From: an uncultured virus (IMG/VR IMGVR_UViG_3300049167_000097)
Lineage: Duplodnaviria; Heunggongvirae; Uroviricota; Caudoviricetes
Length of the DNA stretch: 64,000 nucleotides
Virus record (IMG/VR): IMGVR_UViG_3300049167_000097
Reading direction: 5' to 3' (one strand)
In this document: positions 36,296 through 62,174 of the stretch, one piece after another
Numbering within the stretch: position 1 is the first letter of the stretch
Layout: every line of letters begins with the position of its first letter
Notes under the pieces: generated by a model
The model's input: the letters and a program-made list of their open reading frames with translations, nothing else
Told to the model about the DNA's origin: nothing
Databases searched by the model: none
Position numbers and translations under genes: made by a program

Positions 36296-36305
36296 GACGG
36301 GCCTC

Positions 36306-36737: not shown

Positions 36738-36739
36738 GG

Positions 36740-36934: not shown

Positions 36935-37151
36935 TGTGGGCCTCCTTGGGGGTGTCGTCTCCGGGCCGGACAACGCCCTCGTCGAGGAGCCTTGCGACGA
37001 CCGCGATCATCAGGTTCTTGTTCTGGTCCGGTACGTCGGTCCAGGGCTTCCGGGAGGCTTCACGGGTCTCGTAGCCGTGCGAGGGTGCGAGATCCTCATA
37101 CGCCTCGTGGAAGCGGCGAGCGATGCCTTCGGCCGTACCTGGATCAGACAT
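36927..37151 (-). CDS. Small hypothetical protein
   Basis: AGGAGG RBS. Confidence 0.55.
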   Translation of the reverse strand: MSDPGTAEGIARRFHEAYEDLAPSHGYETREASRKPWTDVPDQNKNLMIAVVARLLDEGVVRPGDDTPKEAHND

Positions 37152-38188: not shown

Positions 38189-38191
38189 TGG

Positions 38192-40064: not shown

Positions 40065-40841
40065 TCAGCCGCTCCCGAGGTAGGCGTTGAGCCTGCCCTC
40101 TTCCACGGCCTGCGTGATCTGCTCGGGGGTCATGCGGTCCACGTCCGCCTTCGTCAGCTGCCGCTTGCCGCCACCTGCTCCGTCCATCGGCGCGCCACCC
40201 GCGGGGGTCGGCTCCTCCTTCGGCTCGGGCTTCTTGGCCGCGAGCTTCGGGTTCGAGTCCACTGCCGCCTTCACGGCCTTCTCGACTGCGCCGGCGAAGT
40301 CGCCGGCAGCCGGGTCGAGCTTGGCGATGGCGTTGGCGAAGGCGCGGGAGTCGAGGAGGGCGTCGGGGTCGCCGCCGTGCGTTCCGGCGGTCTTGTAGAC
40401 GGCGAGTTCGACAGCGGTCTGGCGGGCGCGATCGTCGGACGCCTTAGTCCGGGTCTGCTCCTCGGCCAGCTGCTTGGCGAGCTCTTCGGGGGTGGGCGGC
40501 TTCGCTTCGTCGGTCTCGATGCCGAAGGCGGCGGCGACCTTCTTCATGAAGGCGGCCTGGTCGTCTGCGGCTTTTTTCTCTGCGGCTTCGCGCTTGGCCT
40601 TCTCGTTCGCGACGTCACCGCGGAGGTTCTCGACGAGCTTTTCGAAGCGGGCGGGGTCGAAGTCGCCTTCGAACTTGGGCGCCTTGGCCTTGGGTTCAGC
40701 GGCGGGCTCTGACGGTTCAGCGGGTACTGCGGATGCGGCCGGCTCTGGCTGGGCCGGTGCGGTGCCTTCGGGCTGGGGCGGCGTGTCCGGCTGGCTGCTG
40801 GGGTCCGCGGGCGTGCTCTCGGGCTGGGCGGGGGTCGACAT
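40065..40841 (-). CDS. Capsid scaffolding protein
   Basis: Pro-rich N-terminus, coiled coil, DPDALLDSRAF; upstream of MCP. Confidence 0.8.
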   Translation of the reverse strand: MSTPAQPESTPADPSSQPDTPPQPEGTAPAQPEPAASAVPAEPSEPAAEPKAKAPKFEGDFDPARFEKLVENLRGDVANEKAKREAAEKKAADDQAAFMKKVAAAFGIETDEAKPPTPEELAKQLAEEQTRTKASDDRARQTAVELAVYKTAGTHGGDPDALLDSRAFANAIAKLDPAAGDFAGAVEKAVKAAVDSNPKLAAKKPEPKEEPTPAGGAPMDGAGGGKRQLTKADVDRMTPEQITQAVEEGRLNAYLGSG

Positions 40842-40930
40842 CGGTGCCTCCTTGGGCGGCCTACGCGGGGTGTGCGGCGCCTTGTCCGCTACGCGTTGAC
40901 CCAGATGTTAACCCTGAACCTGCTTCAATG

Positions 40931-40976
40931 CTGCACAATCAAAGGTCGTAGCGCAAGATATCCTTTGAATCAAAGG
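40931..40976. promoter_or_regulatory. Paired operator-like motifs in divergent head/packaging promoter
   Basis: CTGCACAATCAAAGG (40931) and palindromic CCTTTGAATCAAAGG (40962). Confidence 0.65.
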
Positions 40977-40987
40977 AACGGGGGTGG

Positions 40988-41863
40988 GTGGTGGTAGCCA
41001 GCAGCAACCGGATCGCCGACGTGGCGCGCCGACTCCCCCCAGCGCTACGACGCCTCGAGCAGCAGTCCGCCATGGATGCCACCCGCCCCCTCGCCGAAGC
41101 CCTACGAACAGCGCTGCAGGAAGCGGTCCAGGCATGGATTCGCGAGACCAAGCAGCACGAACACGCCCCAAGGCCTGCGGCTTTGGAGCGGCTCATCCAG
41201 CTCATCAAGCGCGCGCTGGCACGTGCCTTCGCCGGGACAGGCCGTCAGGCGCAGCGGGACATCGAGCGAGCGGCCTTCAACGCAGCCCAGCTATCCGCAC
41301 GACAGACGGCATCCATCGCGGCCGCAATGCGAGGCGAGCCCACTCCCCCAGTGACGCCGACCATCGGGCCCGAGGCTGCCGCAGCAGCACGCGCCGTACC
41401 TGCCGCCGTGGAGGAAGAGCACACCAGCGCCCTCGCCCTCCTCACCGCCACCACACTCACGGCCCTCGGACTCGCAGGCGTCCACGCCGTTTTCCAGCGA
41501 GCGCGCCGCGCGGTCACCCGCATCGGCCGGGCACTTGCCGTGGCGACCACCAGTGCCGCAGCGCATGCTGCTCGAGCCGTCGCCGCCGTGATCAGCCCCA
41601 CCGTCCGGCTCCTCTGGGTTGCCGAGCCGGGCGCCTGCCCGGCTTGCGCCGCCTACGCCGGCCGCTCTATTCGTCCCGGCCGTAAATTCCCCGGCGGTCT
41701 GTCGCTCGATCCGCAGCGCACTGTCTTCGACACCCCGATCGCCGGACCACCGCGCCACCCGCACTGCCGCTGTGTCCTCATCCCCTGGCTGCCTGGCTGG
41801 CCTGTGGACGGCACGCCCCTGCCCACGCTGCTCCGGCGGCACGCACGCACTGGAGTCCGCTGA
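40988..41863 (+). CDS. MuF/SPP1 gp7-like minor head protein
   Basis: WVAEPGACPAC...PPRHPHCRC. Confidence 0.75.
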   Translation: MVVASSNRIADVARRLPPALRRLEQQSAMDATRPLAEALRTALQEAVQAWIRETKQHEHAPRPAALERLIQLIKRALARAFAGTGRQAQRDIERAAFNAAQLSARQTASIAAAMRGEPTPPVTPTIGPEAAAAARAVPAAVEEEHTSALALLTATTLTALGLAGVHAVFQRARRAVTRIGRALAVATTSAAAHAARAVAAVISPTVRLLWVAEPGACPACAAYAGRSIRPGRKFPGGLSLDPQRTVFDTPIAGPPRHPHCRCVLIPWLPGWPVDGTPLPTLLRRHARTGVR

Positions 41864-42399
41864 TGCCTGGACGTCCCGTCACCCAAGAAGACCGTGACCG
41901 AGTCGCCGAGCTCCATGCCGAAGGCAAGGGCCGCAACGACATCGCCGACATCATGGACCGCAGCGGAAGCACCATCAGCCGCATCGCGGCCAGCTTCGAC
42001 CCGCCCCTTAGTTTCGAGCGCGGTCCTGAAGTCGCTGCCGCCACGGCCGCACGCAAGTCCGACCTCGCCGCCCTGCGTGCCGACTTGGCGTTCAACCTCA
42101 CCGTCGACGCCGACAAGCTCCGCCGCCAGATGTGGGAGGAGACGACCGTCTACAGCTTCGGCGGCAAAGAGAACACCTACAACTCCGAGGTCTTCGATGA
42201 GGCGCCGGCCGCTGAGAAGCGGGCCCTCATGGGCGCCGCGGGCATGGCCATCGACCGCAGCCTGAAGTTGGAGCCGATCGAGCAGAGCAGCGGCCTTGAG
42301 GGCGCGAAGTCGATGCTCGGCAGCCTGGGCGAGGCGATGGTGGCCTGGTCGCAGCGACAGGACACGGAGGACGCTGCGGCTGAGGATTCCGAGGCGTAG
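41863..42399 (+). CDS. terS: Terminase small subunit (HTH)
   Basis: N-terminal HTH, directly upstream of TerL. Confidence 0.7.
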   Translation: MPGRPVTQEDRDRVAELHAEGKGRNDIADIMDRSGSTISRIAASFDPPLSFERGPEVAAATAARKSDLAALRADLAFNLTVDADKLRRQMWEETTVYSFGGKENTYNSEVFDEAPAAEKRALMGAAGMAIDRSLKLEPIEQSSGLEGAKSMLGSLGEAMVAWSQRQDTEDAAAEDSEA

Positions 42400-42401
42400 C
42401 G

Positions 42402-43652
42402 GTGCTGGACACGCTGCCGCTGTCCCGGAAGCAGATCCGGTCGATCGCGGAGTCGACAACGAAGATCTCCTGCTGGGAAGGGGCGATCCGGTCCGGGAAG
42501 ACGATCGCCTCCCTCCTCAAGTGGCTGATCTTCGTGGCCAATGCGCCGACGACGGGCGAGCTGGTCATCATCGGCAAGACCGCCCAGACCATCCACCGAA
42601 ACCTGTTCCTGCCGCTCCAGGACCCGGCGCTGTTCGGCGACCTCAGCAAGCTGATCCACTACACGCCCGGCGCTCCCACGGCGACGATCCTGGGCCGGGT
42701 CATCCACGTCATCGGCGCCAACGACGCCAAATCCGAGCCGAAGATCCGAGGCATGACCCTGTGCGGCGCCTACGTCGACGAGGTCACGCTGGTGCCGCAG
42801 GTGTTCTTCGAGCAGCTCCTCGGCCGCATGTCCGTGCGCGGAGCACAACTGTTCTGCACGACCAACCCAGACAATCCGGCTCACTGGTTCATGCGGGACT
42901 GGCTGTCCCAGGAGGGCAAGAAGCCCCTCCGCCGGTTCAGCTTCACGATCGACGACAACCCGTTCCTCGACCCCGACTACGTGCGCGACATCAAGGCAAT
43001 GCACGAGGGCCTCTTCTACCGCAGGTTCATCCTCGGCGAATGGGTCGCAGCCGAGGGCGCCATCTACGACTCCTGGGACCGGGAGCGGCACATCGTCAAG
43101 GCGCTCCCCAAGGCCGGCATCCACCGCTGGATCAGCCTCGGCGTCGACTACGGCACGGCGAACCCGTTCCACGCCGTCCTCATCGGCCTGGGCGCGGACC
43201 GCAAGCTGTACGCCGCTGCGGACTGGCGCTACGACTCACGCCAGCACAAGAAGCAGCTCACCGATGCCGAGTACTCGCAGCGGATGCGGGCTTGGCTGGG
43301 CGAGGTTCCGGGGATCGGCGCGGTCCGGCCGCAGTTCATCACCGTCGATCCGAGCGCGGCGTCGTTCAGTACCCAGCTGCGTCGGGACAAGCTGCGGCCG
43401 ACTGCAGCCAAGAACGACGTCATGGACGGCATCCGCACAGTCAGCTCGCTGCTGGCCGCGAACAAGCTCCTCGTCCACGCCTCCTGCAAAGACTTGATCA
43501 CCGAGATCGGCGGCTACTCGTGGGACGACAAGGCCGCCCTCCGCGGCGAAGAGCGCCCCATCAAGGTCGCCGACCACGGCGTCGACGCCCTCCGCTACGC
43601 CATCTTCACCACCCGAGCCCTGTGGCAGCGCCAGCTCGCCCTGGCCGCCTGA
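42402..43652 (+). CDS. terL: Terminase large subunit
   Basis: EGAIRSGKT, YVDE, TTNPD, GVDYG, DHGVDALRY. Confidence 0.93.
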   Translation: MLDTLPLSRKQIRSIAESTTKISCWEGAIRSGKTIASLLKWLIFVANAPTTGELVIIGKTAQTIHRNLFLPLQDPALFGDLSKLIHYTPGAPTATILGRVIHVIGANDAKSEPKIRGMTLCGAYVDEVTLVPQVFFEQLLGRMSVRGAQLFCTTNPDNPAHWFMRDWLSQEGKKPLRRFSFTIDDNPFLDPDYVRDIKAMHEGLFYRRFILGEWVAAEGAIYDSWDRERHIVKALPKAGIHRWISLGVDYGTANPFHAVLIGLGADRKLYAAADWRYDSRQHKKQLTDAEYSQRMRAWLGEVPGIGAVRPQFITVDPSAASFSTQLRRDKLRPTAAKNDVMDGIRTVSSLLAANKLLVHASCKDLITEIGGYSWDDKAALRGEERPIKVADHGVDALRYAIFTTRALWQRQLALAA

Positions 43653-43668
43653 CCGAGAGGAACCTGTC

Positions 43669-45369
43669 ATGCCGCTGCCCCCGTCCGGGAAGACCCCGTG
43701 GCCCCCGCCGCAGCTCGCCGTGCCGCATGCCGACATGGCGACGTGGCACGCCTGGTACTCCGGCGACACAGACCATCTGGCACAGGTGTACGGCGGGGTG
43801 GGTGTGTCCACCAATCCGACCGCCCGCGCGTTCTTCGATTTGAACAAGCCGTCGCAGTACCGGGGCGGCCTCGTGGGCAAGGTCGCGCGCATGTTCTGGG
43901 GTCAACCGGTCTCCCCTGGGCAGCCGGCAGCGAAACTCCATGTGCCGATCGCGGCTGACATCGCGGAGATGTCGGCAAATCTGATGTGGTCGGACGTGCC
44001 GCGAGTCACGGTGGATGCCGACTCGACAGACAAGACGACGGCAGCATCAACCTCAGCGCAGCTGAAGCGGTACCTGGATGACCGTGGTCACGCGAAGATG
44101 CGCGAAGGCTCCGAAATCAACTCAGGCCTCGGCGGCGCCTATTACCGGGTCGTGTGGGACAAGACCATCCAGGAGCGGCCGTGGATGGACGTCCTCTACC
44201 CGGACGCCGTCGTACCAGAGTGGCGGTGGGGCCGACTCGCCGCGGCAACGGTGTGGCGTGAGCTTGAGCCGCAGACCGACGCGTCGGAGATTTGGAGGCT
44301 CCTTGAGCGGCACGAGCCTGGCAGCATCGAGTACGGCCTGTACCGAGGCGACATCGACACCCTCGGCATGCAGATGGCCCTGTCGGATCATCCGGACAGC
44401 GAATACCTGGTGAAGCGGGTCAACGCCCAGGGCAAGCAGGCAACGGGCATCTCCCGGCTGCTCATCTCGCACACCCCGAATATTCTCCCCAACCGGCTGT
44501 GGCACGGCATCCCAAACACGGAGCCGCTCGGCCGCTCCGACTACGCCGGCGTCGAACCCATCATGGACGCCCTCGACGAAAGCTGGACGTCGTGGATGCG
44601 GGACCTGCGCCTGGGAAAGGCCCGGCTGCTGGTTCCGCAGTCGATGCTCGAGACGGACGGCCCAGGCTCCGGTGGCGTCCTCGACCTGGACAGGGAGGTG
44701 CTGATGCAACTCAACATGCTCGACGAGGGCGGCGACGCCGCTTCCATCAAGGAAGTCCAGTTCGACATCCGTGTCGAAGAGCACGAACGGACCTGCAAGG
44801 CACTCCGCCGGCAGATCCTCTCAAGCGCCGGGTACAGCGCCCAGTCGTTCGGCGACGAAGGCACGGTGGCGGTTACTGCGACCGAGGTGGCTGCCCGCAA
44901 GGAGGAGTCGCTGACGACCCGCGGCCTGAAGATCCTGTACGAGCGGCCGGGTCTGCTGGAGCGGCTGACGACCATGATGATGGTGGACGTGAAGCACTGC
45001 GGCGCAAAGGGTGTCGACCCTGCCGCGGAGTTGACGGCGTCATGGCCGGACGCGATACAGCCGGACCCGGAGGCCACAGCACGGGCGCTGTCGCTGCTGG
45101 AGTCGGCTGGCGCGATCTCCACTTGGATGAAGGTGCGCCGCCTCAATCCGGAGTGGGACGACACGGAGATCGCGGCCGAAGTCCAGCGGATCCGCGAGGA
45201 CAAGACGCACGCGGTCCCGGCTGGTGACCCCTTCAACGCCCGCAGGGGCCGACTGGACGAAGAAGAAGACGCCCCGGCCGCCGAAGACGACGACGAAGCA
45301 GGCGCCGACGAAGGCCTGGACGACGAGCAGAGGGGCGGGGGCTCGCCTGTGGAGAAGGAAGCCGCCTAA
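43669..45369 (+). CDS. Portal protein
   Basis: After TerL; LGRSDY...DALDE, TATEV motifs. Confidence 0.88.
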   Translation: MPLPPSGKTPWPPPQLAVPHADMATWHAWYSGDTDHLAQVYGGVGVSTNPTARAFFDLNKPSQYRGGLVGKVARMFWGQPVSPGQPAAKLHVPIAADIAEMSANLMWSDVPRVTVDADSTDKTTAASTSAQLKRYLDDRGHAKMREGSEINSGLGGAYYRVVWDKTIQERPWMDVLYPDAVVPEWRWGRLAAATVWRELEPQTDASEIWRLLERHEPGSIEYGLYRGDIDTLGMQMALSDHPDSEYLVKRVNAQGKQATGISRLLISHTPNILPNRLWHGIPNTEPLGRSDYAGVEPIMDALDESWTSWMRDLRLGKARLLVPQSMLETDGPGSGGVLDLDREVLMQLNMLDEGGDAASIKEVQFDIRVEEHERTCKALRRQILSSAGYSAQSFGDEGTVAVTATEVAARKEESLTTRGLKILYERPGLLERLTTMMMVDVKHCGAKGVDPAAELTASWPDAIQPDPEATARALSLLESAGAISTWMKVRRLNPEWDDTEIAAEVQRIREDKTHAVPAGDPFNARRGRLDEEEDAPAAEDDDEAGADEGLDDEQRGGGSPVEKEAA

Positions 45370-51269: not shown

Positions 51270-51623
51270 TCAGAGGGGAAGGTGGTCTGGGTATGGCTGG
51301 CGTTCGTGGTGTACGCCCCAGCTTCGGATCCAGTACCAGGTGAATGGGAAGTCGTGGATGCCGAGCTCGATGAGGGCAACTGCTCGGTGGTGGCCGTCGG
51401 CGACGTAGGCGTCGTCGGGGTAGCGGTCATTGACGCCGATGATGATGGGCTTCTTGAGGCCGTCCCGTGGGATGGATGCCTTGAGCTGGTCGACGATGGC
51501 TCGATCCTTGTCGCGCCGTTCGAACCTCTGGTGCGCGTCGGCCCATTTGCGGTATTCGGTGGGGCGGACCTGCTGGTCGTTCAGGAGGCTGGTCCGCATC
51601 CTGCCGACCCAGAGGCGGCTCAC
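51270..51623 (-). CDS. Stand-alone ParB/Srx-like N-terminal domain protein
   Basis: LKASIPRDGLKKPIII...VADGHHRAVAL. Confidence 0.65.
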   Translation of the reverse strand: MSRLWVGRMRTSLLNDQQVRPTEYRKWADAHQRFERRDKDRAIVDQLKASIPRDGLKKPIIIGVNDRYPDDAYVADGHHRAVALIELGIHDFPFTWYWIRSWGVHHERQPYPDHLPL

Positions 51624-52396
51624 CGGGCGTACCAGCGGGGTTCATGGTCACCGGCCGCGCCGAGGATCTGGAAGGCGATTTCCTGTGTGTCGAGGCCTTC
51701 CTTCTTTGCCTGTTCGATGAGCTGGTCGGCGAGTTTGCTGCTGCCGCGTCCGAGGAGTCCGCCGCGCTGGAGCTGGCGGCCGGCTTCGGCGATCTGCTGC
51801 GGTGTGGGCTTGGGCATGATGCGTCCTTTCAGGATGCAGTGACGCGGGCTCGGCGGTGCATGCGGGTGTCTTCGCCGCGGCTTATCGGCGGGTCGGGGCG
51901 GCGTCCGTTGCTGTGGAAGTCGCCGGGTGCGGTGCCCTGGTAGGGGCGTCCTTCGGGTTGGGGTCGTCGGCTGTCGCCGTCGCGGGCGTCACGGCCGGGC
52001 TTCTCGTCCGGGTTCCAGGTCACAGGCGCCCCTTGGTGCTGCGGATGCCGTACTGCTGGCGGATTTCGGTGGGGGTGAGTGACCAGCTTTCGGGGCCGGT
52101 GGTCGGGTAGTAGACGGGTTCTCCGTGGCGGCCGGGTCCTGCGGTGGGTTCCCAGGTGTCGCCGTTGCCGTCGGTGATCTGGGCGGGGAAGTCGGGCATG
52201 GCGTTTCCTTTCAGGTCTGGACTGTCCAGCGGCCGTTGCCGCCGCGGATGGTGAAGCCGGGGCCGCTGATCCGGCTGGGGGTGACGGTGCCGATGCCGAG
52301 CTGGTCTATGCGGGCGAGGAGGTCGGCGATCTGTGCGGCGTATTCGGCGGCCTGCTGCTCTCGGCGGCGGAGGTCTTCGGGCTTTCCGGTGAACAT
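51620..52396 (-). CDS. Four micro-ORFs (51620-51817, 51829-52023, 52020-52199, 52211-52396)
   Basis: Three have AAAGGA RBSs; one coupled by ATGA-type overlap. Confidence 0.6.
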
Positions 52397-52407
52397 GCGG
52401 ATTCCTT

Positions 52408-52887
52408 TCAGTGCAGGTTGGCGGCGGTGTTGAGCATGCGGATGACGGTGTCGGGGTTGGTCTGGGCGTCGTTCCACGAGGGGAGGGTGTCTGCCTGGAA
52501 GTGCTGCTGAATGACGTCGAGGAGGCGGGCGCAGGCGTCGTCGGCGCGCCCGCGGTCGGGGCCGGCGGCGGCTCGGATGGCTTCGACGGCGCACACGGCG
52601 CCCTGCTCGTCTCGGAGGCCGCCGCGGGTCCAGCCGCGTGCACGAATGACGTTGATGGCGGCGAGGAATACGGCGGCGAGCGGACAGCCCTGGGGCTGCG
52701 GGGCGAGGGCGGGCAGATCCACAAACTCCAGCTCCACAACCGGCGAGTTGGGCTGGTGGGCGGTGTTCACGTCGAAGCGGAGCTGGGCCTGCTCGAGACG
52801 GAGGGTCATCGACGCGTCCGCGATGGCGAGGCGCGTGTCGAGGTCGACTTGGGTCGGGGTTGCGGTGCGGGTGAGGGTCGTGGTCAT
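52408..52887 (-). CDS. DUF6197-like protein
   Basis: RGWTRG...GAVCAVEAI...PSWND. Confidence 0.65.
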   Translation of the reverse strand: MTTTLTRTATPTQVDLDTRLAIADASMTLRLEQAQLRFDVNTAHQPNSPVVELEFVDLPALAPQPQGCPLAAVFLAAINVIRARGWTRGGLRDEQGAVCAVEAIRAAAGPDRGRADDACARLLDVIQQHFQADTLPSWNDAQTNPDTVIRMLNTAANLH

Positions 52888-52968
52888 GTCGTGGTGCTCC
52901 GGTGGTCTGGGGACTGTCGGGCGGGCGAGGGGCGCTCCGTGTGCTGGCAGGCCGGGGAGCGCCCCCGG

Positions 52969-53370
52969 TCACCAGAAGCTGCGCTTACTCCGGCCGCTGG
53001 CCTGGTCGTTGCGCAGGTTCTGCTTCTCGAGTTCGCGGATCTCGCGCGCGTTGAGGTGCCGGTTCTGCTTCCGGTCGAGTGGTCCGGCGACCTGGGGCCC
53101 GGGGGTAGCGACGTTGCGGACACCCTTGGGCTTCTCGGTGTAGACGGGCCCTTCACGGAGGACGAGGCCCTCGACGGACAGCGAGCCGGAGATCATCCAG
53201 CCGGGCATGAGCGGGTGCCGGTAGGACACCGTGTACTCGGAGTACAGGTGGCTGTCCTCGTAGGGTGCGAGGTTGGTGGCGACCTTCTTCAGGACGTACA
53301 GCTTCTGGCCCTCGCGGACCTCTCGGTCGGCGCGCTTGGCGTCTCGCTTAGTGCGCTGGTACACGGTCAT
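52969..53370 (-). CDS. Hypothetical basic protein
   Basis: TAAGGAG RBS. Confidence 0.65.
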   Translation of the reverse strand: MTVYQRTKRDAKRADREVREGQKLYVLKKVATNLAPYEDSHLYSEYTVSYRHPLMPGWMISGSLSVEGLVLREGPVYTEKPKGVRNVATPGPQVAGPLDRKQNRHLNAREIRELEKQNLRNDQASGRSKRSFW

Positions 53371-53410
53371 CAGGTTCTCCTTAGAGTCGGGATGTTTCGT
53401 GCATTTCGGG

Positions 53411-53562
53411 TGCTAGACGGCGCGGCTGTGCCGCTAAGCCGCAGGTCAGGGGTGCTAGGGGGCCTGCTATCGGGTGGTCAGGTAGCACTCGGCTAGCAGG
53501 CGCGACCAGAGGACGTAGCGGCCCTGACCTGCGGGTTAGCAGGCTCGACCACCTCGATAGCA
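53411..53562. repeat. Phased inverted YGCTA/TAGCR repeat locus (clt-like) downstream of traB
   Basis: YGCTA at 53411, 53432, 53453, 53465; TAGCR at 53483, 53494, 53516, 53537, 53558; IR GCAGGTCAGGG/CCCTGACCTGC. Confidence 0.7.
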
Positions 53563-53571
53563 GGGGGCATA

Positions 53572-55701
53572 TCAGGTCAAAGAGTTCAGGGCTTCGAGCT
53601 TGTATCCGCGGGGGTTCTTCTCACCGTCGAGCGCGCCGAGCTGCACCGGGGAGCCGGCGCCCGCGTCGCGGAGCAGGGCCTTCAGCCGGTCGGCCGTCAG
53701 GTCTCCATAGGCTGTCGGGTCGTGCTCAGCAAGCGCCGCTACGAGGGCCTCAGTGCGCATGCGGTCGACGCCGCGCTTCCGGTACAGATCCGCGGCGTCT
53801 GCAGCCGCGACCTCAGCTTCGGTCCCAGTACTGGCCGTCTCGCCCGGCACGGCATCGCAAAGACGCAGCAGCTGCGCCCAGCTGAGGAGTTTGACCGGCG
53901 CCTCCTTTTTGAGGTTGCCGTCGTTGTCGTACTGCGGCTCGACGTACTCGGGCAGGTCAACATGAGCCATCGCGTCGAGGCTGTCCTGATCAGGATCGAG
54001 AAGGCCAGCAGCAAGACGCTCGGCCGCCAGCTTCCGCAGGACAGCAGAAGGCGTCTCATGAATGGCGTACTCGATCGGCTCGTCGGGCCTTCCAGGCACG
54101 CCCTGGATGTAGATGTGCCCGGCGTCCTTCGAGTCGGTCTGGGTGGCTGGCGAGAGACGGTGAGGCAGCCACCCTTCCCTGACGGAGTCGTCACCGAAGA
54201 CAGCACGGGTGTCGCCGACCTTGCAAGGACCGACGCCCTTGAGGGCGACCATCTGGGCGAAGTTCTCCCCCAGGTACAGCTTCGTGCCGCCCTGCGCCGC
54301 GATCTCCACCTCGATGAGCTCCTTGCGGCCGACGAGCAGGAGGTCGAACGCGAGGCGTTTCGCCAGGTCGGAACCCTTCGGGAACTCGTCGAAGTAGATC
54401 GTGATGGCGGGGTGCGTGGGGGTAGCGATCCACTTCTTACCCATGCCGAGCTTCTTGCGGAGCCTGGCGCGGGCCTTGGACATGACGAGGAAGAAAAGTA
54501 GGACGGCTTCGATCTGCTCGTTGCTGCGTGCGGTGATCCGGACGGCGTCGTAGAGGTCTTCTAGGCCGTCGCCGTGCGGGTCAAGGTCGATGGTGATGTT
54601 GTCGCGGCATGCCGTCGTGCCTTCGGCGAGGGCCTGGAGGATGCCGGTCTTGCCGCCTCCGGATGCGGCGACCCAAAGGCCCATGACGCCGGCGAGGTTG
54701 ATGTCGAGGGGGTCGCCGCCAACGGATGTGCCGATACGGAAGGAGTCGTTGATGGACAGGGACTTGGGTGCCCGGTAGGGCATGGCGGGAGCGGTGGCGA
54801 AGGGGTCGCCTTGAACGAGTCGGAGAACGGCACACGCCCGACGTTCGATCATGGGCTGGGGGCGGACACCGTTCGTCGGCAGATCGAAGCGAGTCTCGAG
54901 GTCGCCCGCAACCTTGATGACGTCCTCAGGGGTGCCTTCGGAGACGCGGATTACGCACTGCCAGCCCCACGGCTGCCGCTGCATGCTGGAGACCTCGGCG
55001 ACGGGGACGCGCTCGGCCAGCAGGGCGAGAAGCACGCATGCCGATGCCTGCGCGGGCGTCTCAGCCAGGGCCAGTGGGAACGGTTCGGCGCCTTCGGGCA
55101 ACTGGTCAACGGTCATGCCGTCGCCTGTCGAGGAGCTGCCGACGGCGAGGGCAGGAGAGCCAGCCGGCAGACCGGAGCACACGGCTGGCCGACCGTTCCA
55201 CGCGCCGGTGATGTAGCCGGCGAGGCCGATGGCTAGGTCGACCCACAGGCCGCCGACAGCGAGGCCAACTGTGCTGCTGGCGCCGATGACGCTTGCCCAG
55301 GCAGCAGACTTGCCGGTGTAGATGAGGCGGTGGCGCAGGTAGTCGGACCGCCGCTGCCGGACGGTGTCCTTGAGTTTGGTCTCTTCGTCGACCTTGTCCT
55401 TGGCGCCCTTCAGGGCCTTGCGGGCGGAGCAGATCATCTGCGGGTAGTCGTCGCGGTAGCCGTCGATCCAAGCGCGGCCGATGTTGGCGTAGCCGCGGGG
55501 CACCCACGGGAGGTAGCCCCGGTTGTCGGCGACGTGGCGCTTCGCGGCCTTGAGGCGTGCGGTCTGGGACTCGATCCATGCGGGGCGGGCCTTCTCGACC
55601 TGGTGCTCGACGACCGTGCCCTCGACAACGTCAGGCAAGTCTTCGACAAGGCTGAGCGCCGGCCGGACGACGGCCTGCTCGGTGTACGGGGCGGTGGTCA
55701 C
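53572..55701 (-). CDS. traB: TraB/TraSA-like FtsK/SpoIIIE DNA translocase
   Basis: TM segments, Walker A AASGGGKT, Walker B IYFDE, C-terminal wHTH-like domain ending NPRGY. Confidence 0.75.
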   Translation of the reverse strand: MTTAPYTEQAVVRPALSLVEDLPDVVEGTVVEHQVEKARPAWIESQTARLKAAKRHVADNRGYLPWVPRGYANIGRAWIDGYRDDYPQMICSARKALKGAKDKVDEETKLKDTVRQRRSDYLRHRLIYTGKSAAWASVIGASSTVGLAVGGLWVDLAIGLAGYITGAWNGRPAVCSGLPAGSPALAVGSSSTGDGMTVDQLPEGAEPFPLALAETPAQASACVLLALLAERVPVAEVSSMQRQPWGWQCVIRVSEGTPEDVIKVAGDLETRFDLPTNGVRPQPMIERRACAVLRLVQGDPFATAPAMPYRAPKSLSINDSFRIGTSVGGDPLDINLAGVMGLWVAASGGGKTGILQALAEGTTACRDNITIDLDPHGDGLEDLYDAVRITARSNEQIEAVLLFFLVMSKARARLRKKLGMGKKWIATPTHPAITIYFDEFPKGSDLAKRLAFDLLLVGRKELIEVEIAAQGGTKLYLGENFAQMVALKGVGPCKVGDTRAVFGDDSVREGWLPHRLSPATQTDSKDAGHIYIQGVPGRPDEPIEYAIHETPSAVLRKLAAERLAAGLLDPDQDSLDAMAHVDLPEYVEPQYDNDGNLKKEAPVKLLSWAQLLRLCDAVPGETASTGTEAEVAAADAADLYRKRGVDRMRTEALVAALAEHDPTAYGDLTADRLKALLRDAGAGSPVQLGALDGEKNPRGYKLEALNSLT

Positions 55702-57023
55702 TTCGACTCCTCAGAGGCGGTGGCGCGGGAAGGTGCGGCGGTGCGTTCGAGGCGCGCCTGCGTTCGAGCAAGCTGGCTCGGCGGCGGCGCGTCGCCAGGA
55801 CGTCGGCGGGGTGGCGTGCCGCCGTTGTTACGGCGTCCGTCGGGGGCGTTCGGGTCGCGCTTCGTGTGAGCAGGTCGATGGGAATTGATCAGCGAAAACG
55901 AGCCCACGATCGGCGTTTCGGTAGCGGTCCGCATACGAGCCTCAGCGGCGCGTGACTGGGCTTCGATTTCGGCGGTGATTCCGACAAGCTTTGAGCCGGT
56001 AACGCGGTACCAGGCGTCGGACCAGATCTGCTCTGTCACGTACTCCGAACCGCGGGCGGAGCGCAGCGCGTCGGCAACCGACCAGACGTCGGGGTGGTGC
56101 TGCTTGCGGTCGGCGTCGCGGCGCTTCTGCTCCTCGCGGGCGCGTGACTCCGCGAGCTGCCTGGCGGCCTCCGCGGCGTGTTCGGCGTCCCGCTTTTCGC
56201 GCTGCGCCTTCTCACGAGCGGCGTCGGCCTCGTCCTTGGACCGGTCGGCTGCTCGACGCTCCCGCCATGACGGGATGCCGTCGGCCTTCTGAGCGATGCC
56301 GTGCTCGTAGGCCATGAGGACGATCGGCCCGCCAAGGGAGGCGATGGCCCCGATCAGGCCGGCGTTGAACCCGATCTCCGACTTGGTCAGGCCGCCGTGC
56401 AGGTTGATCGCTGCGGCGATGGAGGCGGAGACCATGATGCCGACCCGGTACGGGGCGACGTCCCTACGGTGAGCGACGGCCCACGCGGCACCGAGCGCGA
56501 GCACCAGTGCGAGGCCTTCAAGGAGGATGGGCGCCGCGAGGAGGAACTTCCGCGCCGGGTCCCAGAAGTGGAGCAGCTGCACCGGAGCCGCAATCACAAG
56601 GCCGACGGCGTAGATGCCGCGGGCGCCCCACTTCCACAGGTTCTCACTGCGCTCCTGCTCCTCGGCGCGTGCGGCTTCCTCGGCGGCCGCGTCGGCTGCT
56701 GCCTTCTCGGCCTTCTCCCGCTCGGCGTTGGCCTTGGCGGTCTTCTCAGCCTGCTCCGCGATGTAGCGATCGTGCGCAGCCTGATCCTTCTCCTGCTTCA
56801 GACGGGCTCGGTCGTTGGCGAGGCGTTGCTTGGTCGCCTCCTCGACGGCGAGGATCTCGGCGGCCTTGGCCTCCCCTTCGGCCTTGATGCGGAGGGCTTC
56901 GGCTTCGGCTTCGGCGCGGGTCCGGATGGCGTCCGCCTCGGCGATCGCAACCGGGTCGAACCGCGTTTCGGCGACGGCGTGCCCGTTGACCTTCTCGATG
57001 GCGGAGGTGCTCACGACGATCAA
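55698..57023 (-). CDS. SpdB-like coiled-coil multi-TM protein
   Basis: Long coiled coils around about 4 TM helices; GTGA-coupled to traB. Confidence 0.6.
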   Translation of the reverse strand: MIVVSTSAIEKVNGHAVAETRFDPVAIAEADAIRTRAEAEAEALRIKAEGEAKAAEILAVEEATKQRLANDRARLKQEKDQAAHDRYIAEQAEKTAKANAEREKAEKAAADAAAEEAARAEEQERSENLWKWGARGIYAVGLVIAAPVQLLHFWDPARKFLLAAPILLEGLALVLALGAAWAVAHRRDVAPYRVGIMVSASIAAAINLHGGLTKSEIGFNAGLIGAIASLGGPIVLMAYEHGIAQKADGIPSWRERRAADRSKDEADAAREKAQREKRDAEHAAEAARQLAESRAREEQKRRDADRKQHHPDVWSVADALRSARGSEYVTEQIWSDAWYRVTGSKLVGITAEIEAQSRAAEARMRTATETPIVGSFSLINSHRPAHTKRDPNAPDGRRNNGGTPPRRRPGDAPPPSQLARTQARLERTAAPSRATASEESK

Positions 57024-57035
57024 TCCCTTCGGCGG

Positions 57036-57260
57036 TTAGGCGTGCTGGCGGTGGCGCGGGGCGGGGATGCGGATGGTCCGCGGGGGCTGCTGCTGGCTGA
57101 GCCACTGGTCGATGACGAACGCGGCGGCGACGAGGAGGACGAGCCCAATGCGGGTTCCGGGCGGCGGGGTGAGGCCGAACAGCCAGGCCAGGCCGGCGAC
57201 GAGGACGGCGACTCGGGCCCGGTGGGCGATGGCGGTCAGGTCGAGGATCATGACGGTCAC
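57036..57260 (-). CDS. Small 2-TM protein (Spd-like)
   Basis: Two hydrophobic helices upstream of spdB-like gene. Confidence 0.55.
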   Translation of the reverse strand: MTVMILDLTAIAHRARVAVLVAGLAWLFGLTPPPGTRIGLVLLVAAAFVIDQWLSQQQPPRTIRIPAPRHRQHA

Positions 57261-59062
57261 CGCTCCGGGGTAGTGCGCCGGTACTGGTCAAGCTCGAACG
57301 GGTGGATCCCCGCCTCACGGGCGGCGTTGAAGTTGGTCCGTGCGATCGCGACGTCGGCCTGGGACGGCTTGGTGCCGTTCTCGTAGTGATCGACCATCTC
57401 GTCGGCGGATGCTGCGGCCTGGCGTGCGAGATGCTCACGCTGATTCATTGGGGTTCTCCTTCACTGGTCGGGGCGGGCGGTCTGGCCGGTTCTCCTCACC
57501 GCCCGTGCGAGACGGGCGGATCGGGCAGCCGGTCAGTGGCCGCAGGTGCCGTTCACGCAGGGGACGTTGCAGTGGCCGCACGATTCGTCGCACTTCTCCA
57601 GGTAGCGGCCGAGGGTGGCCTTCGAGATCGCCTTGGCGGCCTTGATGCCCTTCTCGCCAGCGAGCTTCTTGCCGGTGTTGTGGAGGGCGTCGACGGTGCT
57701 GTCGAGCAGGTCATCGATCTTCTGTCGGGGCACTGGGTCCTCCTTCCTTCGGGTTCGGTAGCTGGTCAGGCGGCGAGGTCGGCGAGGAGCTGGGTGCCGT
57801 GGACGATGTCGTGGCCGGCGATGAGGGCCTCGACGCGGCGGAGTTCGAGCTCGTCGCCGTTGTGCAGGGCCCATGCGTGGCGGGCGGTGAGCTCGCGGCG
57901 TGCTTCCTGCTCGGCCTCGTAGGCGTCGAGGTCGGCGGCGGAGATGAGGCGGAGGGACATGGGGGTGCTCCTTCGAATCGGTGCGGGATGGTTGGGTGCC
58001 GGGGCGTGGGGCGCGGGGGTTGGAGTCCACGCCCCGGCGGTCGGGGGGCTACCTGCGGCGGTAGCAGCGGACGTCGGCGGCGGTGGTGCCGTCCGCGGCG
58101 GCCCGGTCGAGCTGCTGGTGCGCGGCCCGGATCTCCGCCTCGGACGGGTGCGGGCCCTCGCGGTTCAGGTGGGCGACGACCTTGTCGACGGACGCGGCGA
58201 GGGCTTCGGCGGTGGTCTTGGGCATGGCTGTGAACCTTCCGGTGGTCAAGCGGATGGATTGGTGAGCCGCGCTGACGGGGGCGGGGGTGGTCACCCGCCA
58301 GCGCGGCGGTCATGGGAGTCAGGCGAAACCACCGGCCTGCTTCTCGCAGGACACGGCCTCGGCGCGGCAGGTGGTGGCGAGGTCGTCCTTGCCGTCCCGC
58401 TGCGCCTGGTCGGCGATGTCGCGCCACTCCTGAGCCTTGGCGAGGAGCTGGTCTCCGGTGAGTGCAGGCATGACGATTCCCTTCAGGGCAGTGAAAGCGA
58501 GGGGGTGAGGGTGCCTCGGGCGTGGGGCGCGGGATGGGGACACGCCCGAGGCGGTCTAGCGGCGCGCGGTCAGTGCGCAGTCGCGGAGGTACTTCGCCTG
58601 CTCGATCGCGGCCTGCGCTTCACGCGCGGCTTCCTGGGCGCGGCGGGTCTGCTCGGCGAGCTGGGCGTCCGCGGCAGCTTTGGCCTCGGCGGCGGCCTTG
58701 GCTTCGTCGGTCGTCATGACGTCACCAGCCCATGGCCGGCTGCTCGGCGTGAGCGGCAGCCGCTTCGAAGGCGAGCCGGGCGGACTCCTGGTACAGGAGC
58801 AGCGAGCCGGCGGACGGGTGCTGGGGGTTGGAGGCAATCTCCGCGGCGCGGGCGGCAATGCCTTCGGCGCGGTGCTGCTCCTCGTAGGCGAATGCCTGGG
58901 CGGTCATGGTCACCAGCCCCGGATCGCGATGGCGCGGCGTCGGGCGGGGGTGCCGGCGGGCGGGAGTGGCGGGTACACGGTCTGCTCGACCATGACGCCG
59001 GCCTTGATGCGGCCCGAGACGAGCGGGCGGCGCGTGTCCGTGGCCTTCTGCTGGCTGGTCAT
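57257..59062 (-). CDS. Array of micro-ORFs (57257-57448, 57533-57733, 57766-57960, 58049-58225, 58319-58471, 58556-58717, 58722-58913, 58910-59062)
   Basis: 50-66 aa each, same strand, RBSs or overlaps. Confidence 0.6.
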
Positions 59063-59289
59063 CACGCCACCGCCTTAGCGCCTGGGGTAACGACGCGGGC
59101 CCTGAGGAAGCGGTCGACCGAGTCGGCCGAGACCCGAAAGCGGGAGCGGTCTCCGCTGCCGATGTCGATGGCTTCGAGGTGGCCAGCGTGGATCAGTTCT
59201 CGCACGTACTGGGAGGTGGAGCCAATGCGGCTGGCTGCCTCTCCTGTGGTGATGAAGCCGCTCTTGGGAGCGGCGGGCGTGGACGTCAT
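59062..59289 (-). CDS. Excisionase-family HTH protein
   Basis: ITTGEAASRIG....VRELIHAGHLEAI..G..RFRV. Confidence 0.8.
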   Translation of the reverse strand: MTSTPAAPKSGFITTGEAASRIGSTSQYVRELIHAGHLEAIDIGSGDRSRFRVSADSVDRFLRARVVTPGAKAVA

Positions 59290-59338
59290 TGGGTGCTCCC
59301 ATGCAGTCGGCTGGGCTGACGACTACATAGAAGCAGAG

Positions 59339-59370
59339 TGCTCTAGAGCAAGGCAAGGAGCACTAGAGCA
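59339..59370. promoter_or_regulatory. Palindromic operator pair (probable GntR site)
   Basis: TGCTCTAGAGCA (59339-50) and AGCACTAGAGCA (59359-70). Confidence 0.7.
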
Positions 59371-59435
59371 ATCATTGCTGTTTCAAGACAGCGAAAAGCC
59401 CCCACCCGGGAGGGCGGGGGCCAGGAAGTGGCAGG

Positions 59436-60200
59436 TCAGGAGGAGAAGTCGTACCGAAAGAGATACTTGGAGGCGTCCAGAACCATTCGATTGATCTCGA
59501 CGACCCGATCGGACGCGTCACGGGCATAGCGCACCAGCTCCACCACGGGAGCGGCCGGGGACAGGCCGAGATCCTCCACCTCGGCTGGCAACGCCTTGCG
59601 GCAGCGGAGGTCTTCGCGGAACTTGACCGGCTTGTGCCCAGCCTCCTCCAGCTGCTTGTACGTTCCGCCGGGACCGGTGTCGACCTGCGTGATGCGAGTC
59701 CCGCGCGCGAGATCCTCAGGAATGAAGGCGATAGACCTCATGAGCGGCACGCCGTCGAGGAGGTACCGCCGGTCCCGACGACAGACCAGATCGCCTTCCT
59801 CAATTTCGAGGGCGGTAGCCACGTCAACGTCGGCCGGCAGCTGCTCAACCTGCACACCGTCCGGGACGAGTCGTCGATCCTCGACATCGACGTCCCAGAT
59901 GGACTTGCCAGATCCCCACTGCTCCGACGAGAGGCGCCGTAGGCCGTTCCTCACGATGGGCCGCCACTCCAGGACAAACCAGCCCGAGTTCTTGCGCGAC
60001 TCGATGACACCTTCGTCACGCAAGCTGGCCAGCGCCTGCCGGACTGTCATGACCGAACTGGTGAGGTGCGAGTACTGCTCGAGGAGCTTTCGCTCGGAAG
60101 CGAGCTTGTTCTTGGGGGCGAACTCGCCTTCATCGATGCGCCTACGCAGGTCGTCGGCGATCTCCATGTACTTGTGCTGCTCGCCGGTTCTGCGCGGCAC
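59436..60200 (-). CDS. GntR/UTRA (KorSA/TraR-like) repressor
   Basis: YMEIADDLRRRI...LASE...TVRQALASLRDEG; C-terminal UTRA-like region; GGGAGG RBS before GTG 60200. Confidence 0.88.
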   Translation of the reverse strand: MPRRTGEQHKYMEIADDLRRRIDEGEFAPKNKLASERKLLEQYSHLTSSVMTVRQALASLRDEGVIESRKNSGWFVLEWRPIVRNGLRRLSSEQWGSGKSIWDVDVEDRRLVPDGVQVEQLPADVDVATALEIEEGDLVCRRDRRYLLDGVPLMRSIAFIPEDLARGTRITQVDTGPGGTYKQLEEAGHKPVKFREDLRCRKALPAEVEDLGLSPAAPVVELVRYARDASDRVVEINRMVLDASKYLFRYDFSS

Positions 60201-60221
60201 GTGACCTCCCTCTGACGTATG

Positions 60222-60315
60222 CATCTAGAGCAACGCTACCCGCTGTAGTGCACAGGCCGTGAGTCTGGCCCTGTCGCGCCCCGACGAGCGGCTAGCCATA
60301 AATTGCTCTAGAGCG
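60222..60315. promoter_or_regulatory. Further copies of the CTAGAG operator upstream of GntR gene
   Basis: CATCTAGAGCA (60222) and TGCTCTAGAGCG (60304). Confidence 0.65.
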
Positions 60316-60700
60316 CTACGGTTCTTGTAGTCGATGCGTCACAACACACGTTCGACGGCCCATTCGGCATGCCCGAGAGGAACCGCATGACCTTCGGATT
60401 CGCCACGACGGAGAGCAGCGGTCCCGCCCGCTACTTCAAGCCGCTTCCACCTTTGGCCAATGATTGGCCGCGCGAATGCGAGTGGAGCGCGACGAATCCT
60501 ATCGGGCCAGGCAAATCCACGATCGGTGCAGGTGGTAGACCCCTGGACTCCCGGTCTTGATCTGCACAGTGCAGGTTGGCGGGCGGCCTAATGTCGTCGC
60601 CCAGAACGCGAACGGCCGGACGGGTGCAACCGTCCGGCCTGTTGGACCAGCGGGTGCAACCGCTGATCATCACCGTCACTCCACCAGAGAGAAGGCTCTC

Positions 60701-61045
60701 GTGACTCTACTGCAAGAAGCCCCTGTCGTCTCTGCTCCGCTCCCTCCTGCAGCGCAGGCCTGCCCGTCGTGGTGCACGGAGCGCACTTCGTCAGTACATC
60801 GGTTCGCCGCGGCGGGTACAGCGCACTTCTCTGCACAGACCGTTCTGCCGAATCCGCGGCCGCTGCCAGATGAGACCCCGGCGCTGCTGCGCGCGGAGCT
60901 GTACCAGGACGCCCTCGGCGGGGTGCAGCTGTTCGTGCAGGGCGAGACGACGGTCGATCTATCACCGGTCGAGGCGGATGTCCTGATCGCTCAAGCGCAG
61001 GGATTCGTAGACACGCTGCGCATCCTGCGCCGACAGATGCACTGA
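60701..61045 (+). CDS. DUF6907-like hypothetical protein
   Basis: ACPSWC...H motif; followed by hairpin. Confidence 0.55.
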   Translation: MTLLQEAPVVSAPLPPAAQACPSWCTERTSSVHRFAAAGTAHFSAQTVLPNPRPLPDETPALLRAELYQDALGGVQLFVQGETTVDLSPVEADVLIAQAQGFVDTLRILRRQMH

Positions 61046-61718: not shown

Positions 61719-62174
61719 ATGGGAAACGCGCACGACGTCGCTGCTTACATCCTGTCCAAGACAGGACCGCTGTCGGCGATGAAGCTGCAGAAGCTCTGCT
61801 ACTACTCTCAGGCGTGGTCCCTTGTGTGGGATGAGCAGCCGCTGTTCTCCGAGCGCATCGAGGCCTGGCAGAACGGCCCGGTCGTCCGCTCTCTGTATGC
61901 GAGCCACCGAGGTCAGTACACGGTCACTGAATGGCCGCAGGGTGACCCGCAAGCACTCACACCAGATCAGCGGGCGACCATCAGCGCCGTGATCGATGCC
62001 TACGCGAAACTGACTGCCCAGCAACTCAGCGACCTCACTCACAGTGAAGGACCCTGGATCGAAGCGCGCGCCGGCGTGCCGCTCGGCGAGCGGAGCGACG
62101 CTGAGATCAGCCAGGCGTCCATGCAGCGCTTTTACGCTTCACTGGCAGACCGAAGCGACACGGAGAGTGTCTGA
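61719..62174 (+). CDS. Panacea/SocA (DUF4065) antitoxin
   Basis: DVAAYIL...MKLQKLCYYSQAW...IEAWQNGPV...LSDLTHSEGPW. Confidence 0.9.
   Translation: MGNAHDVAAYILSKTGPLSAMKLQKLCYYSQAWSLVWDEQPLFSERIEAWQNGPVVRSLYASHRGQYTVTEWPQGDPQALTPDQRATISAVIDAYAKLTAQQLSDLTHSEGPWIEARAGVPLGERSDAEISQASMQRFYASLADRSDTESV

Follow-up and report, generated by a model that had tools for sequence, protein, structure and literature searches.

Phages and conjugative elements are usually regarded as separate routes of gene flow, and to our knowledge pZL12 is the single Streptomyces plasmid known to spread both as a phage and by conjugation. Can a phage that integrates into its host genome likewise carry the transfer machinery of a plasmid as a part of its own genome? 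This question is raised by a stretch of 64,000 nucleotides from an uncultured virus of the Caudoviricetes (IMG/VR record IMGVR_UViG_3300049167_000097), referred to here at its full length as the window, in which a first-pass annotation made from the letters alone had noticed siphovirus genes together with a block at 51270-60315 that resembles the conjugation modules of Streptomyces plasmids. We conclude that the window probably represents a temperate Streptomyces siphovirus that holds a plasmid-type cassette for the transfer of double-stranded DNA (dsDNA) as an integral and conserved part of its backbone. The presence of this cassette in a temperate siphovirus lineage is real and conserved, it has precedents in tra loci of the pFP1 type, in pZL12 and in integrative and conjugative elements of actinomycetes (AICEs), and the closest of these are the tra locus of pFP1 and the plasmid-phage pZL12. 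A search of the literature, with subscription journals outside its coverage, found no description of a TraB-type cassette in a Streptomyces prophage. The window, which has a G+C content of 64-72%, is contained in soil metagenome data, as shown by a search of sequencing runs; its genes were called from third-position G+C (GC3) and scanned with the profile libraries of Pfam, PHROGs and NCBIfam.

The ATPase and its relatives on plasmids

The core of the block, in which every gene from 60224 to about 51270 lies on the minus strand, is a protein of 709 aa (53572-55701, minus strand) that is predicted to act as a TraB-like dsDNA translocase and that is composed of N-terminal helices, a membrane anchor at residues 136-165, an FtsK alpha/beta motor and a C-terminal, putatively helical-winged domain of about 80 residues. 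As in TraB proteins, the motor is of the FtsK/SpoIIIE type with both a Walker A motif (GGGKT, residues 348-352) and a Walker B motif (DE, residues 438-439), which are invariant in 31 aligned homologues of 57-77% identity, and the protein matches the family phrog_12531 ('FtsK/SpoIIIE-like') at E 5e-68. The N-terminal membrane association typical of TraB is indicated by the hydrophobicity of residues 136-165 on the Kyte-Doolittle scale and by helices 104-141 and 151-169 of the AlphaFold model, in which the core (residues 190-470) reaches a predicted local distance difference test score (pLDDT) of 70-89 and the C-terminal domain (residues 630-709) a score near 88; folded alone, the latter domain scores 85. 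Foldseek placed FtsK motor domains first (6t8o, 6t8g, 2ius and 2iut; E 1e-12 to 4e-11, about 410 columns, TM-score by target 0.56-0.66), followed by the conjugation coupling protein TcpA and then by EccC/EssC and HerA. The NCBIfam scan returned nothing for the ATPase, and phmmer against the PDB sequences returned a chance match alone (E 0.67). Searching 1.84 billion representative proteins with a profile of the 31 homologues yielded 306 relatives at E <= 0.001, and the ATPase has at least 332 matching protein clusters. Among 30 distant relatives that were scanned, out of 150 listed, 11 carry PF01580 and five an N-terminal FtsK-gamma domain, so that the family passes gradually into FtsK/Tra proteins of the ordinary kind.

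A tblastn search with the ATPase against 72,556 plasmids gave 46 records at E <= 1e-5, of which 44 are from Streptomyces, pFP1 being included among the 46, and two from Kitasatospora. Some of these homologues, with 35-37% identity, reside on Streptomyces plasmids of 24-28 kb, a size too small for a virion module. At the DNA level, megablast found no match for 51.0-60.4 kb among phages or for 46-64 kb among plasmids, and an exact 25-nt search of IMG/VR was likewise empty. The same gene order as in the window is found on the Streptomyces theta-type plasmid pFP1 (NC_006912.1), which encodes a GntR regulator, three small open reading frames (ORFs), a membrane protein of 480 aa and an FtsK-like ORF of 870 aa; the latter is the only FtsK-like ORF of pFP1 and is omitted from the PLSDB table. 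In a blastp comparison the ATPase of the window aligns with this ORF at E 2e-52 and 32% identity over residues 206-708, which cover the motor and the C-terminal domain. The membrane protein with four transmembrane (TM) segments that is encoded beside the ATPase in the window, described below, aligns with its pFP1 counterpart (23300-24742) across the TM core at E 1e-8 by blastp, and a profile of 20 members of the 4-TM family matches it in hhalign with a probability of 99.3% (E 2.7e-20, 173 columns). The window and the conjugative plasmid pFP1 therefore have in common two neighbouring genes together with the regulatory setting of these. The two loci also differ, since pFP1 is a plasmid of 39 kb that encodes ParA and a MobF relaxase, has a replication locus of its own and is devoid of virion genes, its ATPase carries an extra N-terminal FtsK-gamma domain, and the genes that follow the ATPase are not common to both. 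Zhang et al. reportedly found in 2008 that the traB translocase is the major functional transfer gene of pFP1.

A membrane-anchored FtsK-like pump of approximately 690-770 aa, as found in the window, is also present in the rolling-circle and small theta plasmids pSVH1, pIJ101, pJV1 and pWTY27 and in the pSAM2-type AICEs (PMC3583192, PMC4447253, PMC2440964). An example is TraA of pWTY27, a protein of 688 aa with two TM segments at residues 68-124 (excerpts of PMC3583192). In these systems the pump docks through its C-terminal winged helix on clt, a locus at or just after the 3' end of its gene (excerpts of PMC3583192), and it works with membrane partners of the Spd type under a GntR-family repressor (excerpts of PMC4447253 and PMC2440964); the window likewise encodes a clt-like array, a 4-TM protein and a GntR regulator. 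The sequence similarity to canonical genes annotated as 'FtsK/SpoIIIE domain-containing protein' is only remote (tblastn E 2e-7 to 3e-2, 24-29% identity, covering at most residues 232-516) on the five actinomycete plasmids compared, four from Streptomyces and one from Nocardia, with sizes of 7-175 kb. A further difference concerns the size of the carrier: TraB/clt systems reside on elements of 9-24 kb, whereas the element in the window spans at least 64 kb and holds a full virion module.

Repeat array, membrane partner and regulator

Relatives of the ATPase with 59-78% identity were collected from 26 Streptomyces genome loci and 22 IMG/VR contigs, and genes lying within 10 kb on either side of the ATPase homologue were counted for these 48 loci. 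The genes for a DUF6197 protein and for a conserved protein of 133 aa recur in 44 loci each, the 4-TM gene in 35, the GntR gene in 20 and the excisionase-like (Xis-like) gene in five.

Directly after the ATPase gene lies a putative clt-like repeat locus (53389-53562) in the 200 bp that separate the ATPase stop codon from the next gene. Nine of the 86 YGCTA words of the window fall within one stretch of 170 bp here, the other non-overlapping bins of this length holding three at most. They are spaced by 21, 21, 12, 18, 11, 22, 21 and 21 bp, which corresponds to approximately one or two turns of the helix, five of them being oriented forward and four in reverse relative to the ATPase gene, and they enclose an inverted repeat of 25 nt (53433-53457 and 53516-53540). 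The locus thus has what characterizes clt, a non-coding stretch by the 3' end of a tra gene with direct and inverted repeats, and its layout matches the experimentally defined clt of pWTY27, which consists of 16 bp inside the 3' end of traA and the adjoining 159 bp, contains direct and inverted repeats and is bound by TraA; the loci of pJV1 and pIJ101 are comparable (all from excerpts of PMC3583192). An array was surveyed in 34 of the 48 loci; most of the remaining 14 duplicate a genome locus or stand on a contig that is short or truncated. A hexamer occurs in 3-11 copies within the 260 bp that follow the gene in each of the 34, the word being lineage-specific and of the type CTGCTC, CTGATC, CTGCTA, CTGGTC or TGCTCG in 33 of them, and a conserved inverted pair, GCAGGTCA...TGACCTGC, is present in those loci whose array sequence was inspected. 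At one locus (L025, 11900-12400) a divergent sequence of the C-terminal 80 residues of the ATPase goes along with a different array word, CCCGGA/CGGACA. The joint change of both is what the clt/TraB model predicts and presents a single natural case. This word resembles GACCCGGA, the recognition sequence of TraB from pSVH1.

On the other side of the ATPase gene, and overlapping its start with the stop codon, lies the gene of a membrane protein of 441 aa (55698-57023, minus strand), in which four TM segments (residues 136-239) are flanked by coiled regions rich in Ala, Glu and Arg. A multi-TM ORF is found 5' of the ATPase gene in nearly all loci, and the position of an integral membrane protein encoded beside traB is that of the Spd proteins. 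Further upstream follow a protein of 74 aa with two hydrophobic segments by hydropathy (57036-57260, GC3 0.95, homologues in four of the 48 loci) and six small ORFs of 51-81 aa between 57257 and 59065 (58910-59065, 58722-58913, 58319-58543, 58049-58294, 57766-57960 and 57257-57448), all on the minus strand; for most of the latter the GC3 is high, homologues exist in none or one of the 48 loci, and no family scored above the cut-off in Pfam, PHROGs or NCBIfam. The gene that opens this operon encodes an excisionase-type helix-turn-helix (HTH) protein of 75 aa (59062-59289, minus strand; TIGR01764 E 4.3e-9, above the cut-off of that model; PF12728 HTH_17 E 1.6e-5; phrog_66 E 2e-6).

The regulator that heads the block is a GntR/UTRA protein (59436-60224, minus strand; PF00392 E 1.9e-15, PF07702 E 6.3e-21, phrog_10724 E 1.2e-43), likely a repressor of the cassette of the Kor/TraR type. 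A GntR gene also heads the transfer genes of pFP1 and of the pZL12-like plasmid CP046906, and on pSVH1, where transfer needs traB and where spd genes act in intramycelial spreading and pock formation, regulation is exerted by the GntR-type TraR (excerpts of PMC4447253). Candidate operators, as judged from the letters, are the copies of the palindrome TTGCTCTAGAGCA. Two of them lie between the GntR start and a divergent gene at 60369 (60220-60233 and 60303-60316), and two stand in tandem just upstream of the Xis-like gene (59338-59351 and 59358-59371), the latter pair being the candidate for the transfer operon. When up to two mismatches are allowed, the entire 64 kb contain solely the copies at 59338-59351, 59358-59371 and 60303-60316, the copy at 60220-60233 having three mismatches. 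A terminator-like hairpin on the minus strand (59415-59398) marks the end of the GntR gene and separates it from the palindromes at 59338-59371. A scan for sigma-70-type promoters from 53.3 to 60.5 kb, which is uninformative for Streptomyces, gave no site.

Beyond the array, the block continues with two conserved genes and a less conserved one. The protein of 133 aa (52969-53370, minus strand, GC3 0.90), whose gene starts right after the repeat locus, matches no family in Pfam or PHROGs. The DUF6197 protein (52408-52887, minus strand; PF19698 E 4.9e-19) is conserved in the company of the transfer gene. At the edge of the block, a protein of 117 aa (51270-51623, minus strand) is weakly assigned as ParB N-terminal-like (phrog_1033 and phrog_723, ParB-like, E 1e-5 to 4e-5; TIGR00180 E 0.0024, below the cut-off), with homologues in seven of the 48 loci.

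What the first-pass annotation had seen in this block was borne out: the GntR-UTRA regulator, the Xis-like HTH protein, the membrane protein, the FtsK-type ATPase and the repeat locus are all present where it had placed them, with the scores and repeats given above, and the profile and structure search it had called for returned an FtsK motor fold, the architecture of TraB and homology to the FtsK-like gene of pFP1. Its reading of the block as a conjugation module of the TraB/Spd/KorSA type holds for the TraB architecture, the pFP1 homology, the GntR-family gene and the clt-like array, while the membrane protein called SpdB-like stands as a protein with four hydrophobic segments; the labels SpdB and KorSA are analogies that reflect position and family.

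The FtsK-like protein could also have a job specific to the phage in which no DNA is exported, such as resolution or segregation of the genome, partition of an episome with the array as its centromere, host takeover or DNA exclusion. The ATPase fold is also that of the chromosome-segregating FtsK and of HerA-type defence ATPases, PHROGs files phrog_12531 under 'moron, auxiliary metabolic gene and host takeover', and phased repeats bound by winged helices also typify centromeres, TubR being among the weak fold matches of the C-terminal domain (Z 5.3). Against such a job stand the membrane anchor, the overlapping multi-TM gene and the control by GntR, which correspond gene for gene to plasmid transfer cassettes, and the close ATPase homologues on small plasmids of the conjugative type, and we therefore hold it to be rather improbable.

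Position of the block within the phage element

If the block is a transfer cassette, does it belong to the phage? The library scans revealed a complete siphovirus gene set with lysis, tail, head and packaging genes and an integrase. The lysis and virion module (18660-45369, mixed strands) comprises holin and endolysin (18660-20643), tail fibre, a Gp37-like protein, Dit, tape measure, chaperone, tail tube, terminator and adaptors (24168-38950), the capsid (39188-40045) and a scaffold-like gene (40065-40841), all on the minus strand, followed on the plus strand by a terS-like gene, TerL and an SPP1-type portal (41863-45369). The phage integrase (7144-8508, plus strand, 454 aa, phrog_1 E 1e-34) is the sole integrase marking an end of the element and lies outside the block at 51.3-60.3 kb. 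Directly 3' of it, the last 39 codons of a gene of the uppP/bacA type (8511-8630) are contained in an att core that was read from the sequence (8499-8644, plus strand); the fragment matches PF02673 (BacA) weakly, at E 0.04 and with profile positions 238-257 of 257, the last 20. The scanned ORFs of the region from 45.4 to 64 kb gave no match to an integrase or Rep family, and direct repeats flanking the block are not in excess (best bit score 30.7 against 27.0-30.7 in five shuffles).

Complete IMG/VR proviruses (G001, G002, G003 and G005) reveal how such elements are organized when integrated. Three of them, G001, G002 and G005, begin with homologues of the window genes at 9153-10706 and have the block between portal and GntR gene, as in the window, and 9-10 kb from the portal, and G002 runs from the HTH homologue to the homologue of the window integrase with the TraB block inside. 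The window therefore has the same layout, circularly permuted at the junction of integrase and uppP. In the Streptomyces rishiriensis genome that holds G002, direct repeats of 103 bp with 98% identity (400838-400940 and 465678-465780) enclose lysis, tail, head, portal, TraB block, Xis, GntR and integrase genes as one element of 64.9 kb. An overlap exists between the att repeat and a gene for acyl-CoA dehydrogenase at the 3' end of the latter, and the integrase homologue lies 185 bp from attR; no tRNA gene was found at these att sites, and none within the 64-kb window. A set from terminase to integrase in one element, bounded by att sites, as expected of a temperate siphovirus, is thus found in the window and in the relative with the 103-bp repeats. 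More widely, an SPP1-type portal lies 6-23 kb from the TraB homologue in all five IMG/VR proviruses examined and, on the same contig, in nine of ten genomes; for one of these nine the record name and the contig number do not agree, the two portal hits being spaced exactly as the two TraB loci, and in the tenth genome the sole portal hit is on a differently numbered contig. A contig of S. acidicola carries the same prophage region with TraB homologue and portal twice (L004, 50402-72201, and L008, 140283-162082), 89,881 bp apart, which could be a duplication or two tandem lysogens.

In soil, the ends of the element can be followed in the assemblies of sequencing runs. Over positions 5-12 kb of the window, the Logan contigs of four soil runs stop at 8513 and resume at 8596, no listed piece bridging the gap; they break at the core of about 145 bp that is common to host uppP copies. 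In these runs the sequencing depth over the uppP core rises to a peak of 3- to 10-fold, and beyond the loose ends at 8498/8499 and 8644 the sequence is a different one, as expected of host uppP copies, and therefore host uppP copies or integrated forms coexist with the window sequence in soil. The int-attP-HTH junction of the soil-metagenome contig could be an assembly path, and it marks the ends of the element whether or not this is the case.

These data bear on the possibility that an AICE or plasmid of independent origin once inserted into a prophage or next to it and that the block is what is left of it. The usual set of an AICE indeed comprises a regulator of the GntR or XRE family, an Xis-type HTH protein and an FtsK-like Tra protein (excerpts of PMC2440964; PMC3218068), and the window has a corresponding GntR regulator, excisionase-type protein and FtsK-domain Tra protein. 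Phages are mosaic, and the virion module of the window is unrelated to those of the compared proviruses, for which tblastn with the window virion proteins gave no match save weak hits to a few. An integrase with attP directly downstream, another hallmark of AICEs, is present as well, but it belongs to the ends of the phage itself, at a distance of 45 kb from the block. AICEs are small, about 9-24 kb, and free of virion genes, whereas this element has at least 64 kb and a set of head, tail and lysis genes. Further points against a remnant are the lack of a flanking integrase, Rep gene or att-like repeat at the block, the single att pair around both modules in S. rishiriensis, the same position of the block between portal and GntR gene in the window, G001, G002 and G005, the portal within 23 kb in nine of ten genomes and the full length of an ATPase whose catalytic motifs are invariant in 31 aligned homologues. 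An independent remnant that is absent from relatives was rejected because the cassette lies inside the att ends of a relative and is conserved next to portals, and a remnant origin in general appears highly improbable to us. The first-pass annotation had correctly placed head, tail and lysis genes and the transfer block in the same element, had seen no integrase, rep gene or att boundary beside the block, and had proposed an attP in uppP, the fragment of which directly after the integrase is real if weakly scored; the synteny it suggested examining is kept beside portals in related prophages.

Other phages, routes of spread and neighbouring genes

The combination of a siphovirus module and a conjugal transfer locus in one Streptomyces element is shared by the window with pZL12/phiZL12 and its relatives (pSLE1, CP046906, CP109440, CP107843 and CP107973). 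Over 26-45 kb the window has about 76% DNA identity to four circular Streptomyces plasmids of about 88-93 kb, and its TerL is 86-90% identical to those of NZ_CP109440.1 and NZ_CP046906.1 (about 88-91 kb) and 62% to those of NZ_CP107843.1 and NZ_CP107973.1. These four plasmids look like plasmid-phages of the pZL12 type. The element pSLE1 is syntenic with pZL12, and CP046906 carries the type III polyketide synthase gene described for pZL12 and pSLE1 (PMC4487206). In CP046906, the slot beside the terminase side (33874-38173) holds a GntR gene, small ORFs, a 368-aa 'conjugal transfer protein' and a DUF6197 gene. The transfer gene of the pZL12-type plasmids is not homologous to the ATPase of the window, as none of these plasmids appears among the 59 plasmid records matched at E <= 1, and when the slot of CP046906 is compared with the cassette of the window GntR alone aligns (27% identity). 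DUF6197, present in the window and in CP046906, is therefore a companion of two non-homologous transfer genes. The two kinds of element also persist differently, the pZL12-type relatives as extrachromosomal plasmids of about 86-93 kb with ParAB, the window with an integrase, an att core in uppP and integrated relatives. The kinship of the virions and the non-homologous transfer genes therefore mean that related virion modules have been joined to two transfer cassettes at the same position, in a plasmid-prophage on the one hand and in an integrating phage on the other. We know of no FtsK/TraB-type dsDNA cassette in Phi1207.3, a prophage of Streptococcus pyogenes and thus from a different phylum. 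Its transfer is reported to occur by conjugation (excerpts of PMC4260502).

How might such a cassette work? In the model that we infer from gene content, the GntR repressor would bind the TTGCTCTAGAGCA palindromes and silence its own region and the leftward operon. Upon relief of repression, the excisionase-type protein, the small proteins, the two membrane proteins and the TraB-like pump would be made. The pump, held in the membrane through its anchor at residues 136-165, might assemble into an FtsK-type ring, and its C-terminal winged-helix-like domain may dock on the phased YGCTA words that follow its own gene, in the way of TraB on clt. After excision, the circular genome of the phage would then be driven by it in the form of dsDNA into an adjacent hypha or compartment, with the 4-TM partner presumably aiding passage across walls and septa in the manner of Spd proteins, and in the recipient the phage integrase would insert the genome into the 3' end of uppP.

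A homologue of the ATPase is also found in lytic Streptomyces phages of the BE cluster (NootNoot, Paradiddles and Jay2Jay), 89 phage records giving a match. In the top-ranked records this pump resembles the window ATPase with about 33% identity over residues 50-574 (E about 1e-61), and both belong to phrog_12531. In NootNoot it differs in standing alone among tRNA genes in a lytic genome of 131 kb, and it comes without the partner, the GntR regulator and the C-terminal domain. The NootNoot homologue (73794-75611, 605 aa) lies next to the terminase region.

The lytic phages make it conceivable that the cassette acts within one mycelium and carries genomes across septal cross-walls or into spores, during lysogenisation or lytic growth, as a means of movement rather than as a route between strains. 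They keep a homologous pump although conjugation brings them nothing, Spd-type partners of plasmids work in intramycelial spreading (excerpts of PMC4447253), and papers from one laboratory loosely link FtsK-like genes of Streptomyces phages to development or replication. The full cassette with clt-like array, C-terminal domain, GntR and Xis is, however, common to conjugative plasmids and not to lytic phages, and a purely intramycelial role is in our view unlikely. As the machinery of plasmids does both jobs, this role overlaps with transfer between strains more than it excludes it.

Several observations weigh against the interpretation of the block as a transfer cassette. The lone pump of the BE-cluster phages implies that such a pump can serve phages other than by conjugation. 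PF01580 does not match the ATPase in Pfam even at E 10, and the name TraB is absent from the source annotations of the 120 ATPase homologues listed. For the C-terminal domain Foldseek returned nothing at E <= 0.001 (best E 0.26), and the top 50 VIA-align matches, many of them winged-helix or winged HTH proteins, have Z 5.0-6.3, all below Z 8, the value of 6.3 being under the level that excludes a common arrangement. Among 20 homologues of the 4-TM protein scanned with Pfam, none matched DUF2637 (PF10935) or a Spd-type family at E <= 0.01; the pFP1 homologue is annotated as 'DUF2637 domain-containing'. That the FtsK-like gene of pFP1 is its functional traB is presumed here, and two papers citing pFP1 are silent on its traB. 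Lastly, no Rep of the RepSA, RepAM or Prim-Pol type and no Nudix or Pif protein was recognized when about 90 ORFs were compared with Pfam and PHROGs and 15 with NCBIfam, many of the ORFs giving no match, and after transfer the element would therefore depend either on integration or on replication genes that escaped recognition.

Taken further, the transfer reading leads to the tentative idea of a phage with two routes of infection, one by virions and one by pumping dsDNA, free of virions, through hyphal walls and septa. The GntR operon would couple excision to the pump, the cassette would be comparable to a movement protein, and the lone pump of the lytic BE-cluster phages might be a stripped-down version for crossing septa. 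What can be said at present is that an integrating phage lineage in many Streptomyces species keeps a plasmid-type dsDNA pump cassette in its genome. If the cassette works, it would allow passage between hyphae and strains without particles, escape from receptor-based resistance and from extracellular defences, and lysogenisation of an entire mycelium after entry at a single point. The unexplained 'FtsK-like' genes annotated in Streptomyces phages would be accounted for as well, and the cassette offers a compact dsDNA-transfer module of pump, docking site, partner and repressor that is directly testable in laboratory strains that are not pathogenic.

Some further genes of the window deserve mention. 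The packaging genes on the plus strand diverge from the scaffold, capsid and tail genes on the minus strand around 40841-41863, an unusual split of the late region. The tape measure (28771-34767) is a protein of 1998 aa in which an M23 peptidase domain (E 2.6e-31) is accompanied by an SLT transglycosylase domain, and its gene contains six copies of a 49-nt repeat (31608-32295). The plus strand to the right of the GntR gene carries the genes of a DUF6907 protein (60557-61045) and of a SocA/Panacea antitoxin-domain protein (61719-62174; PF13274 E 9e-20), the region up to 62692 also holding a phrog_8366 protein. About 4.4 kb from the att core, a tyrosine recombinase of the XerC/D type is encoded on the minus strand (13057-14088; PF00589 E 4e-26 and an N-terminal SAM-like domain) with a small ORF on either side (12737-14444); it might serve in dimer resolution, in inversion or as a second integration system, and provirus G001 carries a copy with 91% identity near its start.

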